From contig JBGAGQ010000004.1 of NCBI GenBank assembly GCA_044226625.1, positions 96,001 to 160,000 on the forward strand: DNA of 64,000 nucleotides, given 5' to 3'. Under the pieces are notes generated by a model. The model saw only the letters and a program-made list of their open reading frames with translations, was not told the origin of the DNA and searched no databases. Positions 37,985 to 45,969 of the stretch are shown piece by piece. The translations under genes and the position numbers were made by a program. The DNA is from Thermoanaerobaculia bacterium (GTDB taxonomy: Bacteria > Acidobacteriota > Thermoanaerobaculia > Multivoradales > UBA5704). How positions within the stretch are numbered: position 1 is the first letter of the stretch; every line of letters starts with the position of its first letter.

Positions 37985-39577
37985 TCAGGGGCGGGGCAAG
38001 GGATCGAGCGCTTCGAACGCTCTCGCCAGCCAATCGTCCGGCGTCGGCCCCCAGTGGGTCATCCCGGGTACTTCCAGATAGGTGACGTGGGTGAAATCGT
38101 CGCGGCGCAGCTCCGCGTCGACCGCTCGGGTGGAAGCTCGGTTGTAGTCGCGTTCCCCGGTGATCAGGACCAGGCGGCCGCGCTCTCGGGCGAGGCGCAG
38201 CAGGTCGGTCGGGGGCTTGTGGAAAGGCGCGATCCAGCTCGCTCCGGGTTTGTCGGTGACCTGGAGGTCGCGGTACCAATCGACCCCCATGAACATCAAC
38301 CCACCACGGAAGACGTCGGGATAGAGGATCGACAGCGCGCTCGCGGCTCGGCTGCCGCCCGAATGACCGGCGATGTAGGTGCGGGCCGGGTCGATGGGAT
38401 AGAGGCGGCGCATCTGCTCGACCGCGTCGAGCGCGAGCCCCCACCGGTCCAGTCGGATCCTGTCGTTGCCGGAGCGGTCGGCGCCGATCCAGATCATCCG
38501 CCGCGCGGAAAGCACGCTTTCGAGCGTCGGTCCGGCGACCTGGGACAAGCCGCCGTATTCCCAGGGCGAAACCCAGACCATCAGGCCCCAGCCCTCCTTC
38601 GGTGGCTCCCCGGCGGGGACGGTGACCTGGAAGCTCTCGTCGGCGAGCCGATAGGAGAGCGCGCGCGGCGTTTCCGCGAGTACGCTCTTCCGGTCGAGGC
38701 CGGCGCGCCGCAGAACCTCCGGCAAGGCGCTCCAGGCCGACCGTTCCTCGAACGCCACCTTGTAGGTGCCGGAACGGCCGGCACGGGGCGCCTCCGCCGG
38801 CGCGGCGAGGCGCGCGGCGAGCGCCGGGGGGAGCTGTTCGCGGGTCGACTCCTCGGCGATCGGCGGGAGGGACCCGGCTTCGAGGGCCGCGAGGAACGAG
38901 TCGGCCGCGGCGGGCTCCCCTTTCTGTTCGAGCAGCAGGCGGAGCAGCTTTCGCAGCTCGCCGTCGTCCGGGGCGATGCGGAGCCCCGTTTCCACCGCCT
39001 CCACCGCCTTTCCGAGATCCCCTTCCAGATACCAGGTGCGGGCGATCGCGCGCAGGACCTCGGGGCGCTCCTTCCGCGGCAGCGTCCGGAGCGCTTTCTC
39101 GTATTCGTCTCGCGCGGCCGAGGTCTGCCCCTGGGCCAGGAGGGCGTTGGCCTTGGCCAACCAGGAATAGATGGTGTGGGGAACCTCGGCGCCTCCTGGG
39201 GTCGCCTCGGAGAGCGGCCGGAGCCGAAGCTGGACCACCTTGCCCGGCCCCTCCTCGGCGACGTCGACCCATCCTTCCGCGTCGATCCATCCCGCGGCTT
39301 GGACTGTCAGCCGCCAACGGCCGGCCGCGAGCCCCAGGAACGACCAGCGCCCGGCGGAATCGGTAGTCGCGGGCGGCGGCCCGGCGCCCTCTCCCTCGCC
39401 GATCCGAAGGGTCACCTTCGCGTTCGCGAGCGGCTTGCCGTCGGCGTCCAAGACCCTGCCGTTCGCCCGACCCAGACCGGCGGTCACCGGCCGCTTCTCT
39501 TCCGCCGCGGCTCCCGCCGCCGAGAGGACCCTCGAGACGAGCAGAAAGGCAATCCCGAGGCGACGGACGCGAGTCAT
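37985..39577 (-). CDS. Secreted protein: carboxypeptidase-regulatory-like domain, TPR, and alpha/beta-hydrolase (esterase) domain
   Basis: 'GRVLDADGKPLANAKV'; TPR helices; nucleophile elbow 'IAGHSGG'; 'GERDYN'; 'PGMTH'. Confidence 0.78.
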   Translation of the reverse strand: MTRVRRLGIAFLLVSRVLSAAGAAAEEKRPVTAGLGRANGRVLDADGKPLANAKVTLRIGEGEGAGPPPATTDSAGRWSFLGLAAGRWRLTVQAAGWIDAEGWVDVAEEGPGKVVQLRLRPLSEATPGGAEVPHTIYSWLAKANALLAQGQTSAARDEYEKALRTLPRKERPEVLRAIARTWYLEGDLGKAVEAVETGLRIAPDDGELRKLLRLLLEQKGEPAAADSFLAALEAGSLPPIAEESTREQLPPALAARLAAPAEAPRAGRSGTYKVAFEERSAWSALPEVLRRAGLDRKSVLAETPRALSYRLADESFQVTVPAGEPPKEGWGLMVWVSPWEYGGLSQVAGPTLESVLSARRMIWIGADRSGNDRIRLDRWGLALDAVEQMRRLYPIDPARTYIAGHSGGSRAASALSILYPDVFRGGLMFMGVDWYRDLQVTDKPGASWIAPFHKPPTDLLRLARERGRLVLITGERDYNRASTRAVDAELRRDDFTHVTYLEVPGMTHWGPTPDDWLARAFEALDPLPRP

Positions 39578-39716
39578 CCAGGGCATCACGCGATACGACG
39601 AAACGTCGGAACCCTCGAAAGTCGCCAAGGCACGCCCCCTCATCCGAAATCAGGAGGGAGGGTAGGACGTGCGGGCGCACGGGTCAATTCCGTTCGACCC
39701 GGACCTCTGGGCCGGC

Positions 39717-41189
39717 CTACGGCATGGCGGTGCCGCTCCCCTGCGCCCAGGCGAGGGCCGGATCCGAAGTCTTTTCCATCCGGGCGCGAAGACGCCCTCG
39801 CAGCTCGGCCAATACCCCGCCAAGGGCTGGGTCGCCGATTCGGTTGTGGGTCTCGGCCGGGTCGGCGCGGAGGTCGTAGAGCTCCTCCCCTCGGCGGGGG
39901 TCCTTCCAGACGATCAGCTTGTGCGCGGGGGTTCGGATCACGCGATAGGCGAGCCCGCCGAACTTTTCGCTCTTCTCGTCCGCCCACTCCGAGTAGGACT
40001 CCTCGATCCTCGAAGATCCTCCGATCGCGTCGACCAGATCGCGTCCGGGCCAGGTGAGAGGGACCGGCAGCCCGGCGAGACGGAGCAAGGTCGGAGGCAA
40101 GTCCATGCTGGAAACCGGAAGGTCGGACGCCATCCCCCGGGACCAGCCGGGGCCGTCGATCAGGAACGGCACGCGCAACGAGCTTTCGTAAGGCACCTGC
40201 TTGCCGTCCGCTCCGGAATCGGGACCTCCGAGCCCCCGCTCACCCATCATGTAGCCGTTGTCGCCCAAGAAGACGACGACCGTACGGTCCGCGAGTCCGG
40301 CCTTTCCGAGTGCCGCGAGGACGCGCCCGAGCTGTTCGTCGAGAAAGCTGACGGCTTCGTCGTAGTGGCGCCAGTCGTTCGCCTCGACGTCGGACGGGAA
40401 ACCGGGCGGCCGGAGCTCCATCTCGTTTCGGCCCGCGTACAGGGCCTCGATCCGCTCCGGATTGGGCTGGTAAGGAGTGTGCGGCGCCGTAAAGCCGAGC
40501 CAGAGGAGAAAGGGTCCCGACCGCGCCGTCTCGCCGCTCAGGAAGTCGATCGCGTCGTCGGCAAAGATCTCTTGGGTATAGCCAGGGATCTTCCGATGCG
40601 GCGGCTCCCGTTCGGCGCTCGGTCCCGAGACGAGCTCCGGATCCCGGAAATCGGATCCTCCCTCGGGCAGCCAGGTCCGCACCTCGGAAAACCCACACTC
40701 GCCAGGGGGCGCCGGAAGATGCCACTTGCCGACCAGCACGGTCCGGTACCCCGCGTCGCGGAGCAAGCCAGGCAACGTCGGCCGTCGGCAGAGCCGCTCG
40801 TCGCTTCCCGGTTCCTGGTAGCGGGTCGAATAGATGCCGTGGAGGAAAGCCGGCAGGCCGGTGATCAAGCTCGCGCGAACCGGATGGCATTGCGAGACCG
40901 AAACCGTGGCCTGCCGAAAATACACGCCCCGGCTCGCCATGGCGTCGAGCACGGGAGTAACGATCCAGGGATTCCCGGCGGCGCCCACGGCGTCCCAACG
41001 ATGATCGTCCGACAGGACGACGACGAGGTTCGGGCGACTCGAGAGCTCCCGGCCCCCGGCCGGTCCCGAGCTCCCCGTCGGTTCCGGAAGGTTCTGGACT
41101 GGCCTACCGTGGCCGGCGCTTTGGCACGCCCACGAGAGGGCGGCGCCCAAGAGCGCCGCGACGATCGATCCGCATCTTTTGGAAAACAT
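39717..41189 (-). CDS. Cys-type sulfatase, probable lipoprotein
   Basis: 'RPNLVVVLSDD', CxPxR 'CHPVRASLITG', 'GKWHL', 'GDNG'. Confidence 0.9.
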   Translation of the reverse strand: MFSKRCGSIVAALLGAALSWACQSAGHGRPVQNLPEPTGSSGPAGGRELSSRPNLVVVLSDDHRWDAVGAAGNPWIVTPVLDAMASRGVYFRQATVSVSQCHPVRASLITGLPAFLHGIYSTRYQEPGSDERLCRRPTLPGLLRDAGYRTVLVGKWHLPAPPGECGFSEVRTWLPEGGSDFRDPELVSGPSAEREPPHRKIPGYTQEIFADDAIDFLSGETARSGPFLLWLGFTAPHTPYQPNPERIEALYAGRNEMELRPPGFPSDVEANDWRHYDEAVSFLDEQLGRVLAALGKAGLADRTVVVFLGDNGYMMGERGLGGPDSGADGKQVPYESSLRVPFLIDGPGWSRGMASDLPVSSMDLPPTLLRLAGLPVPLTWPGRDLVDAIGGSSRIEESYSEWADEKSEKFGGLAYRVIRTPAHKLIVWKDPRRGEELYDLRADPAETHNRIGDPALGGVLAELRGRLRARMEKTSDPALAWAQGSGTAMP

Positions 41190-41211: not shown

Positions 41212-42381
41212 TCAGGCCGTCGCCCGTTTCTCCTCCCGTTCGAGCAACCGCGCTTTCCGTTCGGCTCCCCAGCGGTATCCGCCGCGGGCGCCGTCGCCGC
41301 GGACGACGCGGTGGCAAGGGATCACCAGGGCGGCCGGATTGTTGGCGCAGGCGGTTCCCACCGCGCGCGACGCTCCCGGGCTGCCGATCGCCGCGGCGAT
41401 CTCGCCGTAGGTCCGGGTCTCCCCGCGAGGGATCTTCCGAAGCTCGCGCCACACGCGGAAGGCGAACGCGCTCGCCCGCAGCGTGACGAGATCGAGGGGC
41501 AGCTCGGACAGATCGGCGCTCGCCCCTTCCAGCGCGGCGAGGACCGGCGCGACCCAGGCGCCGAGATCGGAATCGGCGCGATCGCTCTCGTCGACGATCT
41601 CCGCGTTGGGGTACTCCCGGCGCAGCTCGGCTTCGAGCTCCTCTCCCGAATCGCCTAGCGCCACCGCGGCGACGCCGCGTTCGGTGGCGGCGAGCAGCAC
41701 CCGTCCCAGGGTCGATTCGGCGATCGTGAATCGGAGACGGATCCCCTCTCCTCCCCGTCGATACGCGCCAGGGGGCATTCCGAGGCGGCCGTCCGCCTGC
41801 TCGTAGAGCCGGCTCGAGCCGCTGTAGCCGGCGTCGTACAGCGCTCCGGTGACGGATTCCGCCGAACGGAGGTTCCCCTTGAGCTTGGCGGCCCGCCGTG
41901 CGGCCAGGTACTCCCGCGGCGAGATTCCGGCGACGCGCAGGAACGTCCGTTGAAGGTGCGAAGGGCTCGAGCCGGTTTCGCTCGCGAGGCGGGCGAGCGT
42001 GGGGGGCTCGGCCTCCGAGTCTTCCGCGGCCCGATCGAGCAGGGCGCGCACCCGCTGCGTCAAATCGAGATCGCTCGCGACCTCACCCGGCCGGCAACGG
42101 AGGCAGGCGCGAAATCCCGCGGCGAGCGCATCCGAGGGCTCGGGGAAGAAGCTGACCCGCTCCCGAAGCGGCCGGCGGGAAGGACAGGAGGGGCGACAGA
42201 AAATGCCGGTCGACGAGACGGCGAAGACGAAGCGGCCGTCTTGCCCCCTGTCGCGGGCGACGACCGCCGACCAGGCGGCTTCCTCGTCGAGCGCGGCGGC
42301 ACGCGCCCCGGGCGTGGGCGATTTCTGGTTCGATTTCGGGTGCATCGGGCGGCTCATCGGTACGGCGGTCGAGTTCCACAT
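41212..42381 (-). CDS. ada: Bifunctional Ada transcriptional activator/O6-methylguanine-DNA methyltransferase
   Basis: 'CRPSC', 'FRACLRC', AraC-type HTH, 'IPCHRV'. Confidence 0.95.
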   Translation of the reverse strand: MWNSTAVPMSRPMHPKSNQKSPTPGARAAALDEEAAWSAVVARDRGQDGRFVFAVSSTGIFCRPSCPSRRPLRERVSFFPEPSDALAAGFRACLRCRPGEVASDLDLTQRVRALLDRAAEDSEAEPPTLARLASETGSSPSHLQRTFLRVAGISPREYLAARRAAKLKGNLRSAESVTGALYDAGYSGSSRLYEQADGRLGMPPGAYRRGGEGIRLRFTIAESTLGRVLLAATERGVAAVALGDSGEELEAELRREYPNAEIVDESDRADSDLGAWVAPVLAALEGASADLSELPLDLVTLRASAFAFRVWRELRKIPRGETRTYGEIAAAIGSPGASRAVGTACANNPAALVIPCHRVVRGDGARGGYRWGAERKARLLEREEKRATA

Positions 42382-42563
42382 GTCGGCGTCTCCTTAGATC
42401 CTGGCGCAGGATGCCGCGGAACGCCAAGGCGTCGCACTCCGAAACTTGTCGTCAAACCGCCAACCCCCGGAGGTGGTCCGATCACCGGCTCGACGGGCTA
42501 CCATTGTGCCGACGGCCTGCCGCGCGGACCCGTCCGCAGGGTGGCAGAGAAGGAGTCTCCAAC

Positions 42564-43589
42564 ATGAAGCCCCACCCCATCGGACTCATGGGGCTCGGGA
42601 GGATCGGACGCAACCTGGCCCGGATCCTCTACTCGAGCGACGAATTTCCCATCGCCGCGATCAGCGACATCGCCGATCACGCGGCGCTCGCCTATCTGCT
42701 CCGTTTCGACACGTTGCTGGGGGTCTTTCCGGAGCCGGTCTCCCTGGGCGCCGACGGCCGGCTCGATCTCGCCGGACGAAGCGTCCCGATGCTCTCGGGA
42801 GAGAAGCCGGGGGACGTCCCCTGGGGCGACCTCGGGGTCGAGACGGTGATCGAGGCGACCTCGAAATACCGTTCCCGGGGGGAGATCGAGAAGCACCTCG
42901 AGCGGGGCGCCAAGCGGGTCATCCTCTGCTCGCCGCCGGCCGATCCGCCGGACCTCACGGTCGTCGTCGGCGTCAACGACGGCGAGCTCCGCCGCGAGCA
43001 CCGGATCGTCTCGAACGCTTCCTCGACCGCCCATGCCGCGGCGCCGCTGCTCGAGATCCTCGGCGACGCGTTCGGCATCGAGCGGGCGTTCCTCTCGACC
43101 GTCCACGCCTTGAGCAACCGGCAACGTCTGGCCGACGTCCCCTCCGACGATCCGCGCCGCGGGCGCGCCGCGGCGGAGAACATCATCCCGCAGAGCAGCA
43201 ACTCGGCCGAGGTGCTGGTCGGCCTCCTCCCCTCGCTCGCCGGGAAGATCACGGGCATGGCGATGAACGTCCCGGTCGCGAACGGCTCGATCGTCGACCT
43301 CGTCTGTTGGCACGAAAAGCCGGTCACCGTGGCGGCGATCAACGACGCGCTGCGTTCGGCCGCCGCGAGCGAGCGTTGGCGGGGCATCTTGGCCTACGAA
43401 GAGGATCCGATCGTATCCTCCGACATCTTGAAGAGCACCTACTCCTCCACCTACGACTCGCTGCTCACCATGGTGCTGGGCGAGAAAGTCTCGAAAACCC
43501 TGGCCTGGTTCGACAACGGTTGGGGATACGCGCACCGGGTCATCGACCTGCTGCGCAAGTTCCGCGCGCTCGACGGCGAGGAAGGTTGA
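42564..43589 (+). CDS. GAPDH-like paralog lacking the catalytic cysteine (putative pseudoenzyme)
   Basis: Full GAPDH fold motifs (GLGRIGR, VIEAT, VVGVN, IVSSDI, WFDNGWGY) but NASSTAHA in place of NASCTTNC. Confidence 0.85.
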   Translation: MKPHPIGLMGLGRIGRNLARILYSSDEFPIAAISDIADHAALAYLLRFDTLLGVFPEPVSLGADGRLDLAGRSVPMLSGEKPGDVPWGDLGVETVIEATSKYRSRGEIEKHLERGAKRVILCSPPADPPDLTVVVGVNDGELRREHRIVSNASSTAHAAAPLLEILGDAFGIERAFLSTVHALSNRQRLADVPSDDPRRGRAAAENIIPQSSNSAEVLVGLLPSLAGKITGMAMNVPVANGSIVDLVCWHEKPVTVAAINDALRSAAASERWRGILAYEEDPIVSSDILKSTYSSTYDSLLTMVLGEKVSKTLAWFDNGWGYAHRVIDLLRKFRALDGEEG

Positions 43590-43594
43590 ACGAC

Positions 43595-44623
43595 ATGGAC
43601 AGCGCCACGCACCGCTCGCCCACCCGCATCGGTATCAACGGCTTCGGACGCATCGGCCGGAGCGTCTTTCGCATCCTCTCCGACCGCGAGGATCTCGAGG
43701 TGGTCGCGATCAACGACCTCTACGAGAACGAGCAGCTCGCCTATCTCTTGAAATATGACTCCCTGATGCGCACCTTCCCGCGCGCGGTGAAGACCGACGA
43801 CGATTTCCTCTACGTCGACGATCGGAAGATCGCGATGACCGCGGAAAAGGATCCGGCGCAGATTCCCTGGGCCGGGCTGGGCGTCGATCTGGTGATCGAG
43901 TCGTCGGGCGTCTTCACCAAACGGGAGAAGCTCGAGAAGCACCTGACGGCGGGAGCGAAGAAGGTGGTCCTCACCGTTCCGGCGAAGGACGAGATCGACG
44001 CCACGATCGTCGTCGGCGTGAACGACGACACGCTGCTCCCCTCGCACCGGATCGTCTCGAACGCCTCGTGCACCACCAACTGCCTGGCGCCGATCGCCAA
44101 GATCCTCGACGACTCGTTCGGCATCGTCGAAGGCTTCCTGACCACGGTGCACGCCTACACCAACGACCAGCGTCTCGCCGACGTCCCCCACAAGGATTTT
44201 CGCCGTAGCCGGGCGGCGACCCAGAACATCATCCCGACGACCACCGGCGCCGCGCGCGCGGTGGGAAAGGTCCTGCCGAAGCTCAAGGGCAAGCTCGACG
44301 GTCTCGCCATGCGCGTGCCGGTGCCCGACGGATCGACGATCGATTTCGTCTGCCGTCTGAACGCGAGGCCGAACGTCGCGGACGTCAACGCGGCGGTGCG
44401 GACGGCGGCCGAGGGCTCCTTCCTCCGGCTGGTCGAATACAGCGAGGTGCCTCTGGTTTCCTCCGACATCATCGGCAACCCGCACTCGTCGATCTTCGAC
44501 GCCCTCTCCACCCAGGCGACCGGCGACGGCTTCGCGAAGGTCGTCGCCTGGTACGACAACGAATGGGGCTATTCGAACCGCCTGGTCGACCTGATCGACC
44601 GGATGGTGGCGGTGGGAGGCTAG
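43595..44623 (+). CDS. gap: Type I glyceraldehyde-3-phosphate dehydrogenase
   Basis: GINGFGRIGR, NASCTTNCLAP, TTGAA, MRVP, WYDNEWGYS. Confidence 0.97.
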   Translation: MDSATHRSPTRIGINGFGRIGRSVFRILSDREDLEVVAINDLYENEQLAYLLKYDSLMRTFPRAVKTDDDFLYVDDRKIAMTAEKDPAQIPWAGLGVDLVIESSGVFTKREKLEKHLTAGAKKVVLTVPAKDEIDATIVVGVNDDTLLPSHRIVSNASCTTNCLAPIAKILDDSFGIVEGFLTTVHAYTNDQRLADVPHKDFRRSRAATQNIIPTTTGAARAVGKVLPKLKGKLDGLAMRVPVPDGSTIDFVCRLNARPNVADVNAAVRTAAEGSFLRLVEYSEVPLVSSDIIGNPHSSIFDALSTQATGDGFAKVVAWYDNEWGYSNRLVDLIDRMVAVGG

Positions 44624-44668
44624 CCGGCCGCCCACCGCGATGCCGGCCCGGCGCGGACTACGGCCGGC

Positions 44669-45235
44669 CTACCGCCGGGCGACCGAGGTGCCCGGCTTGG
44701 CGCCGCCGAGGAGCCGGATTTGCTCGTCGATCGCCTTCGTCAGTTGCGCGCCCGCGGAGGATCCCCAGTCAATCTGCTGGTGGGCGATGCGCCCCTTGCC
44801 GTCGATCACGAAGTAAGTGGGAAATCCCTGGACGCCGTACGCGCGGCGCAGCTTGCCCTCACCATCCCAAACCTGCGTAGCGGGTGAGGGGTTGGCTTCG
44901 AGGAACAGGCGAAGCGTCGCGAGCGTCTGGTCCCCGCTCACGGAGATCATCGTGAACTTCGCCGGGTCGTACCGCCGGACGATCGCGTCGAGCTGCGGCA
45001 ACGCCGCGCGGCATGGACCGCACCAGGTGGCCCAAAAGTCGAGCAGGACGACTTTTCCCGCCAAATCTTTGGCGTGAATCAGATGCCCGTCGACGGTCGC
45101 AAACTCGAGCGTCGGAGCCGGGATCAGGGCGGGGGCCGGGGCGGCGGCCGGTTCCGCGCCGCGCGCCTCCGCCGGCGTCACTCCCGCCCAGATCGCGAGC
45201 GTAGCGGCGAAGCAGGCGGCCGTGAGTGCTCTCAC
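44669..45235 (-). CDS. TlpA-family thiol-disulfide oxidoreductase
   Basis: Signal peptide; 'DFWATWCGPC'; 'GFPT'. Confidence 0.9.
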   Translation of the reverse strand: MRALTAACFAATLAIWAGVTPAEARGAEPAAAPAPALIPAPTLEFATVDGHLIHAKDLAGKVVLLDFWATWCGPCRAALPQLDAIVRRYDPAKFTMISVSGDQTLATLRLFLEANPSPATQVWDGEGKLRRAYGVQGFPTYFVIDGKGRIAHQQIDWGSSAGAQLTKAIDEQIRLLGGAKPGTSVARR

Positions 45236-45768
45236 GCCTTGCTCCGGCCGGCCGCGAGCTTGCCGAGCTCCGCCGTTATCGCCCGGTCGAGATCCGGTCC
45301 GTACCCGTCGCGCCAGCCGTAGAGGGTGTAGACCACTCGCCCCTCGGGATCGATCAACAGATGGGTCGGCAGGCCCTGGACGTTGAACTGCGCGCTCAGC
45401 TGACCTCGTCCGTCCCAGACCTGATGTGACATCGGCGGATGCTGGGTGAGGAAACGCCGCACCGGCTCCTCACTCGAGTCGGCGCTGATCGAGATCCGGG
45501 CGAACGGCTTACCGGAGAGGCGTTGGGTGATCGCCTCCACTTCCGGCCGCGATTTCGCGCAGTAGCCGCACCAGGTCGCCCAGAAATCGACCAGCACGAC
45601 CTTGCCGGCGAAATCCTTCGGACCGATCTCCTTGCCGTCGATCGTGCGGAACTGGAGCGTCGGGGCCGGGTAGGGCTGGACGGCCGAAGTCCGAGTCGGA
45701 GCGGCGTCCGCGGCGAAGGCCAGCAACGCGAGGCCGCAGGCGGCGAACAGGGCATAGATTCGTTTCAC
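45232..45768 (-). CDS. TlpA-family thiol-disulfide oxidoreductase (tandem paralog)
   Basis: Signal peptide; 'DFWATWCGYC'; 'GLPT'. Confidence 0.9.
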   Translation of the reverse strand: MKRIYALFAACGLALLAFAADAAPTRTSAVQPYPAPTLQFRTIDGKEIGPKDFAGKVVLVDFWATWCGYCAKSRPEVEAITQRLSGKPFARISISADSSEEPVRRFLTQHPPMSHQVWDGRGQLSAQFNVQGLPTHLLIDPEGRVVYTLYGWRDGYGPDLDRAITAELGKLAAGRSKA

Positions 45769-45969
45769 GATCTCTCCTTCGAGTCCCAACGGTCCGAGAG
45801 GCGGTCGGCCAAAGCGGCGTGTCTCGACCGAACGGCGGGCCAAGCTGCAAACCGCATGCACGGCTTTCGTGGCGGTGCTAGGCTCTACTCCCAACCCGAT
45901 CGAGAACCCTACCCTTCCCGGTCCAGCTCCTCCATCCCTCCCTTTCCTCTATCGAGGCAACGAGCGAAT

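Follow-up and report, generated by a model that had tools for sequence, protein, structure and literature searches.

Glyceraldehyde-3-phosphate dehydrogenase (GAPDH) ranks among the most studied enzymes, and the bacterial form is regarded as a homotetramer whose subunits are identical and active. Here we describe a gene, named gapX, which lies directly upstream of a canonical type I gap gene in a 64-kb stretch of contig JBGAGQ010000004.1 of a Thermoanaerobaculia bacterium (the whole analysed stretch is referred to as the window) and which encodes a divergent GAPDH-like protein with a substituted active site. Our proposal is that gapX codes for a pseudoenzyme that works as the partner of its active paralog, in this case in bacterial glycolysis.

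The nearest precedent for a heteromeric GAPDH is the chloroplast GapA/GapB enzyme (A2B2), in which two GAPDH paralogs join in a hetero-oligomer on the normal interfaces, and for which structures containing both A and B chains are deposited in the PDB. Both chloroplast subunits are catalytic, GapB differing mainly by a regulatory C-terminal extension, and their genes are nuclear and unlinked. The gapX product, in contrast to GapB, has no such extension, and it is devoid of some catalytic residues. Epd (GapB) of the gamma-proteobacteria, an erythrose-4-phosphate dehydrogenase, is likewise a GAPDH paralog that has diverged and changed its function; it retains the Cys nucleophile, and gapX scores far below the cut-offs of the models built for it (TIGR01532 and NF010058). 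The top solved match to the gapX protein of the window (P0001) is the Cys149-to-Ser GAPDH of Geobacillus stearothermophilus (PDB 1nq5 and 1nqo; E=5.6e-85), which also has Ser at the nucleophile position. However, this is a laboratory point mutant of a canonical enzyme, with Arg231 (AMRVP) and Glu314 (WYDNE) kept, and not a representative of a natural family. None of the 140 PDB matches was a gapX family member, all of them being ordinary GAPDHs or their mutants, and the ESM Atlas gave generic GAPDH and erythrose-4-phosphate dehydrogenase (E4PDH) clusters only.

Outside the GAPDH fold, trypanosomatid AdoMetDC heterodimerises with a catalytically dead paralog to give an active complex (PMC6221367). 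By analogy, this pairing of a dead paralog (the prozyme) with an active one may serve as a working model for gapX, although it concerns another fold and another pathway in a eukaryote, and binding and activation by gapX are what we propose. In Pseudomonas putida, the proteins PP_3443 and PP_0665 are presented as auxiliary GAPDH homologs of unclear role, PP_3443 having been assayed for glyceraldehyde-3-phosphate oxidation and classed as a minor enzyme of the GapA type; unlike for gapX, the available part of that report makes no mention of pairing with gap or of loss of catalytic residues (PMC12663938). The literature outside subscription journals yielded neither a description of a gap-linked bacterial GAPDH paralog lacking Cys149 or Arg231, nor a published experiment on any member of the gapX family.

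The two genes of the window are placed on the same strand, gapX upstream, and are separated by a spacer of 5 nt, ACGAC (coordinates in Table 1). Both products, P0001 and P0002, contain the Pfam domains Gp_dh_N and Gp_dh_C and share 45% identity across 336 residues (E=1e-104). In P0001 these two GAPDH domains (PF00044, 4.3e-22; PF02800, 1.8e-46) make up the entire Pfam content, with no DNA- or RNA-binding and no signalling domain. In domain composition, length and identity to the neighbouring Gap, gapX resembles type I GAPDH (GapA; TIGR01534), and it also keeps the GxGxxG motif, the Asp32 equivalent, His176 and the S-loop. It differs in its score against TIGR01534, which is 306.8 bits and thus below the cut-off of 367.2 (P0002 reaches 431.9), and in its active site, since the window copy lacks Cys149 and the whole family lacks Arg231 and Glu314. 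P0001 also scored below the cut-offs of the E4PDH models (249.9 against 530.55 for TIGR01532, and 236.7 against 539 for NF010058), of the ArsJ-associated GAPDH model NF033735 (257.9 bits against 450) and, altogether, of all nine NCBIfam GAPDH/E4PDH models that it matched. No third GAPDH homolog was found elsewhere in the 64-kb window.

When gapX is set against Gap, NASSTAHA stands for NASCTTNC, IIPQSSNSA for IIPTTTGAA, AMNVP for AMRVP and WFDNG for WYDNE, while GLGRIGR, TVHA and the S-loop are retained, with H181, R198, R199 and R201 present. In P0002 every catalytic residue is present. The first-pass annotation of this DNA, which had reported two full-length GAPDH homologs 5 nt apart and had quoted these changed and retained motifs, was therefore accurate as to the open reading frames (ORFs), the spacer, the homology and each of the motifs.

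The pair is not confined to this genome. A scan of one genome per species, in which a gapX profile and the patterns AAAENIIP and VVD[LM]VCWH were used, matched at least 600 stretches and gave at least 584 confirmed relatives, and the best 80 loci were analysed. At 79 of these 80, one strand carries a tandem of two GAPDH homologs, of which the divergent one lies upstream; the lone unpaired locus (L062) begins at a contig end. For roughly half of the loci, it was the canonical gene that the pattern had matched, and a far more divergent gapX was found just upstream of it. The loci are distributed over 11 named phyla: Acidobacteriota, Thermodesulfobacteriota, Eiseniibacteriota, Krumholzibacteriota, Planctomycetota, Bacteroidota, Fidelibacterota, Lentisphaerota, Latescibacterota, Actinomycetota (Acidimicrobiia) and Pseudomonadota, the last of which includes Halieaceae, Porticoccaceae and others.

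The junction between the two genes is usually tight. Among the 79 pairs (the window being one of them), the stop of gapX overlaps the start of gap in 57 (32 with a 4-nt and 25 with a 1-nt overlap); another 13 pairs are 0-30 nt apart, two are further apart, and in seven the start was left unassigned by the rule used. As in the window, an AGGAGG-type site was seen within the final gapX codons at all five other junctions inspected (L040, L052, L066, L068 and L080). Because the Shine-Dalgarno sequence of gap is encoded in the last codons of gapX, the acidic, Gly- and Ala-containing C-terminus of gapX is under a dual coding constraint. The 2038 flanking ORFs from the 79 loci were clustered all against all, and no other family occurred in more than 10 loci, which rules out an operon-level explanation through a third conserved gene. 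The genes that do follow the pair at some loci, coding for phosphofructokinase (10 loci), phosphoglycerate kinase (4) and phosphoenolpyruvate carboxylase (5), point to a central-carbon context.

A few candidates and irregular loci should be mentioned here. P0272, a 564-aa protein in which a partial gapX is joined to gap, was considered as a fusion and rejected, as it has out-of-frame-looking stretches between the halves and is probably a frameshifted read-through. The long multi-GAPDH proteins P0122, P0130 and P0142 were discarded as gapX candidates on account of their canonical Cys motifs. In L007 and L032 the downstream gap copy is split into tblastn pieces in different frames, which may reflect either an assembly error or a real disruption.

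The residue census was based on 79 gapX proteins and their 79 partner Gap proteins, i.e. 78 loci and the window, with L062 and L032 (in which gap is fragmented) left out. Positions follow the conventional GAPDH numbering, in which Cys149, in the SNASCTTN motif, is the nucleophile, Arg231 is a part of the substrate-phosphate site and Glu314 belongs to the WYDNE motif. No gapX protein has Arg at position 231, which is Asn in 73, Ser in three, Ala in two and His in one, and none has Glu at position 314, which is Gly in 49, Ser in seven, Ala in seven and Thr in four and falls in an alignment gap in the other 12; the partner Gap proteins have Arg in 78/78 and Glu in 77/77. The nucleophile position is Cys in 27 gapX proteins, Ala in 24, Ser in 18, Asn in five, Pro in three and Val in two, against Cys in 79/79 partners. 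Position 209, Gly in 78 of the 79 partners, is occupied by 12 different residues in gapX, and position 206, invariably Thr in Gap (79/79), is Gln in 36 gapX proteins, Asn in 27 and another residue in 16.

Other parts of the active site are kept: Ser148 in all 79 gapX proteins, Thr150 in 75, His176 in 78 and Thr179 in 73 (Ser in the remaining six), as well as the S-loop arginines Arg194 (79), Arg197 (79) and Arg195 (69). At the NAD site, the Asp32 equivalent is Asp in 71 and Glu in seven of the 79, G10, G12 and R16 are invariant, and G15 is nearly so. The His of the Gap S-loop motif PHKD, which is strictly conserved in Gap, is not retained at the corresponding place in gapX.

Two larger protein sets give the same picture at closer range. 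Protein-search relatives of P0001 share 68-88% identity with it, come mostly from Acidobacteriota/Thermoanaerobaculia metagenome bins, and in many cases are named by NCBI only as "GAPDH NAD-binding domain-containing protein". In the set formed by the window copy and 119 of these relatives, the nucleophile position is Cys in 66, Asn in 42, Ser in 11 and Val in one, and many columns are invariant across the 120 rows and yet unlike GAPDH, among them Asn235 (Arg231), Gly319 (Glu314), Gln210, Cys122 and Trp249-His250. In a Halieaceae-type subfamily (78-100% identity to the query), all 120 matches lack Cys (Ala in 114, Pro in five, Ser in one) and all 120 have Asn231. The Halieaceae gapX proteins (L052, L066, L068 and L080) have GFGQTGRQ in place of GFGRIGR and a WYDNE region shortened to WYENLGH, and to judge by these motifs their NAD binding may be altered.

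The mixture of lost and retained residues could also be read in another way, namely that gapX is an active enzyme whose chemistry or substrate has changed, for instance one that is an NAD-dependent dehydrogenase acting on a compound without a C3 phosphate, or through His176 without a thiol, and feeding or draining the Gap reaction. The high retention of His176, Ser148, Thr150, Thr179 and Arg195 agrees with this, as does the presence of Cys149 in about a third of the family, and the substitutions are themselves conserved (Asn at 231 in 73/79, Gln or Asn at 206 in 63/79), as would be expected of a remodelled pocket. However, position 149 is Ala, Ser, Asn, Pro, Val or Cys among close relatives of equal conservation and equal ratio of nonsynonymous to synonymous substitution rates (dN/dS), position 209 is highly variable, and P0001 fails the cut-off of every GAPDH and E4PDH model that it matched. 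We consider an altered enzyme improbable and suggest instead that gapX has lost GAPDH activity.

A FastTree phylogeny of 78 gapX proteins, 76 partner Gap proteins and 43 other canonical GAPDH representatives, rooted at the midpoint, recovered gapX as one clade (78/78 rows, support 100), with the window copy nested together with L001 and L028. The gapX and Gap rows form a common clade of 154 (78 gapX, 75 Gap and the representative P0132; support 100), outside of which the other 42 representatives are placed, together with L023_G, a faulty long row. This would make the gapX clade sister to the clade of its partner gap, a relation that we regard as provisional because FastTree readily joins long branches and the root was set at the midpoint. 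A quick IQ-TREE run on the gapX rows, with 8 Gap rows as the outgroup, also separated the two groups (support 99). The first-pass annotation had asked for a phylogeny and a synteny comparison, and both speak strongly for a conserved, gap-linked paralog forming one clade rather than for a decaying copy. To judge from these alignments, gapX is probably an ancient GAPDH paralog in which GAPDH catalysis has been given up.

The order of the losses can be read from the same material. On the IQ-TREE tree, position 149 underwent at least nine switches between Cys and non-Cys and 17 residue changes. The basal gapX lineages (Krumholzibacteriota, Eiseniibacteriota and Planctomycetota) keep Cys and already have Asn231 and Gly314; therefore Arg231 and Glu314 were lost first and the nucleophile later, repeatedly. 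In the alignments, this repeated switching is the pattern expected after the nucleophile had stopped mattering.

Despite these losses, gapX is maintained. Out of 51 close pairs for which family dN/dS was calculated, 34 were usable and 17 saturated; the median (with range) was 0.19 (0.07-0.43) for gapX and 0.15 (0.04-0.28) for Gap, and the pairs of Cys-less gapX gave 0.09-0.23. Judged by these ratios, gapX is under purifying selection, and so are whole clades devoid of the nucleophile.

The window copy itself requires a separate comment, as the first-pass annotation had taken its Cys-to-Ser substitution as the hallmark of the paralog. It is not. Cys is kept by all six of the nearest protein relatives in the tree (84-88% identity) and also at the two closest genome loci, L001 and L028; the change, as far as the sequences tell, is thus private to this genome and recent; the losses which define the family are those of Arg231 and Glu314, and they are older. 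The codon is TGT in L001 and L028, TGC in L003, L016 and L017, and AAC in L002. The TCG of the window is two substitutions away from TGT or TGC, which, as had been argued, speaks against a single-base sequencing error; one of the two is silent, however, and the distance is no evidence that the change is old.

The same annotation had also reasoned that Cys in close relatives would mean recent decay. Cys is indeed kept there, and the notion that the window gapX was recently inactivated and is becoming a pseudogene can draw on this and on the 28 private amino-acid changes counted on the window branch, against 8 in L001. Decay is nevertheless not indicated, because Arg231 and Glu314 had been lost earlier, Cys has been switched at least nine times in the family, and the window copy is no outlier. 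Its ORF is intact and has its own ribosome-binding site, its dN/dS is 0.154 versus L001 and 0.176 versus L028, far from the value of about 1 that had been named as a sign of decay, and the corresponding values for gap are 0.120 and 0.131. The gap gene shows the same branch asymmetry, 21 private changes versus 11 (Fisher p=0.29). Of 160 columns that are highly conserved in the family, P0001 departs from the consensus at 5, and its six nearest relatives do so at 0-6. The dN/dS values, the conserved-column count and the matching asymmetry in gap give no support to a relaxed constraint in the window gapX, and, taken together with the purifying selection acting on whole Cys-less clades, this makes incipient pseudogenization hardly credible.

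What, then, is a non-catalytic GAPDH maintained for? The gapX and gap genes have travelled together: each of the two deepest gapX clades has its counterpart in a Gap clade made up of the same loci (38 versus 34 rows and 30 versus 31, the differences being rows left out as truncated), and pairwise distances in gapX and Gap are correlated (Pearson r=0.85, 2701 comparisons of 74 pairs), gapX being the more divergent in 98.9% of the comparisons. In five loci from Desulfobacterales/delta-proteobacterial bins (L004, L005, L009, L010 and L021), gapX and gap both nest inside Acidobacteriota clades, the gapX proteins being 65-69% identical to that of the window; this points either to the pair having been transferred as one unit or to mis-binning. 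Similarly, gapX of L054, which is labelled Bacteroidia, groups tightly with the Halieaceae copies, for which a wrong bin label or a recent transfer of the pair may account.

A two-chain model of gapX with Gap gave a score of 0.64, while the best of three controls gave 0.00; of 157 solved complexes 116 attained such a score, as did 2 of 215 mismatched pairs, counts that are approximate because own alignments were used. The model runs agreed in at least 99% of the contacts, with a predicted local distance difference test score (pLDDT) of 92 for P0001 and of at least 92 for the partner. At the modelled interface, 17 of 39 gapX residues are at least 90% conserved, as compared with 42 of 302 elsewhere in the protein (odds ratio 4.8, p=3.5e-5), whereas in Gap the respective numbers are 20 of 42 and 121 of 300 (p=0.40). 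As the contrast exists in gapX only, gapX has relaxed nearly everywhere, the exceptions being its oligomer interface, its S-loop and its NAD motifs.

Residue 249 of gapX and residue 254 of Gap occupy equivalent interface positions in the model and look complementary: Trp at gapX 249 goes with Arg or Lys at Gap 254 in 36 of 38 loci, and elsewhere Glu is found with Arg twice and Arg with Glu once. This could be a heterodimer-specific contact, but the pattern is confounded by phylogeny, coming essentially from one clade, and we treat it as a lead only.

Based on these observations, we suggest that gapX is a non-catalytic GAPDH paralog which assembles with Gap into a hetero-oligomer, a reading that we consider slightly more probable than not. 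It is preferred because of the strict pairing, the translational coupling (typical of subunits made in a fixed ratio), the co-descent of the two genes and the way in which constraint is distributed in gapX. The gapX gene would be co-transcribed with the gap gene directly downstream and usually translationally coupled to it, and the two products would combine into a hetero-oligomer, whose probable form is an A2B2 tetramer that uses the normal GAPDH interfaces. The role of gapX in it would be structural, and perhaps one of NAD(H)-dependent regulation, instead of turnover. It may still bind NAD, and it may affect the kinetics and the redox sensitivity of Gap, with cofactor handling via the S-loop, built-in half-of-sites behaviour and oxidant resistance as candidate effects.

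The roles that the first-pass annotation had put forward, namely a subunit of a heterotetramer, a regulator or an NAD(H) sensor, remain inferences from linkage, co-divergence, interface conservation and the complex model, and the same data can be read without a stable complex. In that case, gapX would bind NAD(H) and serve on its own as a sensor, regulator or moonlighting factor of central carbon metabolism, as a homotetramer or with some other partner, and the tandem arrangement would ensure co-expression with gap. The NAD-binding motifs with the Asp32 equivalent are conserved, a conserved interface would suit a homotetramer equally well, and glycolytic genes sometimes follow the pair. However, the 57 stop-start overlaps in 79 pairs, together with strict pairing and no other conserved neighbour, are more typical of subunits needed in fixed proportion, and Pfam gives gapX no DNA- or RNA-binding or signalling domain. 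A stand-alone role therefore seems to us rather unlikely, although less so than an altered enzyme.

Several points weigh against assembly with Gap or limit what can be drawn from the evidence for it. The pass of the complex model may be due to its likeness to solved GAPDH homotetramers and chloroplast A/B heteromers; it expresses likeness and not binding, and the model cannot separate a gapX-Gap interface from a gapX-gapX one. The conservation of the interface in gapX, which fits a subunit, fits a gapX homotetramer equally well. Congruent trees and correlated distances are expected for any two co-inherited genes. The pairing was seen in the best 80 of at least 584 relatives, and unpaired gapX may exist outside that sample, while no natural gapX-gap fusion was seen among proteins of up to about 600 aa. 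Finally, the 27 gapX proteins (of 79) that have Cys149 also possess His176, Ser148, Thr150 and Thr179, and residual or altered catalysis is possible in them.

As regards the surroundings of the pair in the window, an Ada-type protein (Ada Zn-binding, AraC helix-turn-helix and O6-methylguanine methyltransferase domains) is encoded divergently from gapX, and a sulfatase and a CarboxypepD_reg + TPR protein are encoded upstream of the Ada gene. On the other side, two tandem AhpC/TSA-Redoxin/thioredoxin-like genes with a 4-nt overlap converge on the end of gap; relatives of one of these redoxins were found near the pair in five loci including the window (the others being L001, L024, L025 and L028). 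Thus, the scanned flanks contain an Ada-type regulator/methyltransferase upstream and two redoxins downstream, and no transporter, unlike the setting of the ArsJ-associated GAPDH. A scan of positions 42200-44900 gave no sigma-70-like promoter, and the terminator scan gave a single terminator-like site, at 42304 upstream of the pair, which is at chance level.

Table 1. Positions of the gapX-gap pair, of its signals and key residues, and of neighbouring genes in the window
Feature	Position	Strand	Description
gapX	42564..43589	+	ORF without internal stop; 341-aa GAPDH-like protein P0001
gap	43595..44623	+	canonical type I GAPDH, 342 aa, P0002; Cys159 codon 44069-44071
Shine-Dalgarno-like AAGGAG	42550..42555	+	8 nt ahead of the gapX start; read from sequence
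Shine-Dalgarno-like GAGGAAGG for gap	43578..43585	+	within the final gapX codons; read from sequence
Ser154 TCG codon	43023..43025	+	gapX position equivalent to the Cys149 nucleophile
Asn235 AAC codon	43266..43268	+	gapX position equivalent to Arg231; family-defining substitution
Gly319 GGT codon	43518..43520	+	gapX position equivalent to GAPDH Glu314
gapX residue 249	43308-43310		modelled interface position, equivalent to Gap 254
Gap residue 254	44354-44356		modelled interface position, equivalent to gapX 249
CarboxypepD_reg + TPR protein	37985-39643	-	upstream of the Ada gene
Sulfatase	39717-41189	-	upstream of the Ada gene
Ada-type protein	41212-42381	-	divergent from gapX
Redoxin-type gene	44669-45235	-	AhpC/TSA-Redoxin/thioredoxin-like
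Redoxin-type gene	45232-45894	-	AhpC/TSA-Redoxin/thioredoxin-like

The recognition of gapX would correct a widespread annotation error. In the source records its members are named "glyceraldehyde-3-phosphate dehydrogenase" or "type I GAPDH", including those of the cultured Halioglobus maricola, Seongchinamella unica and Marinobacter alexandrii, and metabolic reconstructions therefore count a second active GAPDH. Some hosts of the pair are cultured and non-pathogenic. Moreover, gapX constitutes a natural case of active-site decay that followed a fixed order, with Arg231 and Glu314 lost first and then the nucleophile, at least nine times.

In its widest form, our proposal is that the physiological glycolytic GAPDH in a large set of bacteria from at least 11 named phyla may be an obligate heterotetramer of Gap and dead gapX, made from overlapping cistrons, in which gapX sets the cofactor handling, the cooperativity or the oxidant sensitivity of the enzyme. 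We put this forward tentatively, as a generalization whose chances we place a little below even. If the hetero-oligomer is real, a pseudoenzyme subunit would be added to central glycolysis, and gapX-Gap would be the first core glycolytic enzyme containing a pseudoenzyme to be described from bacteria.

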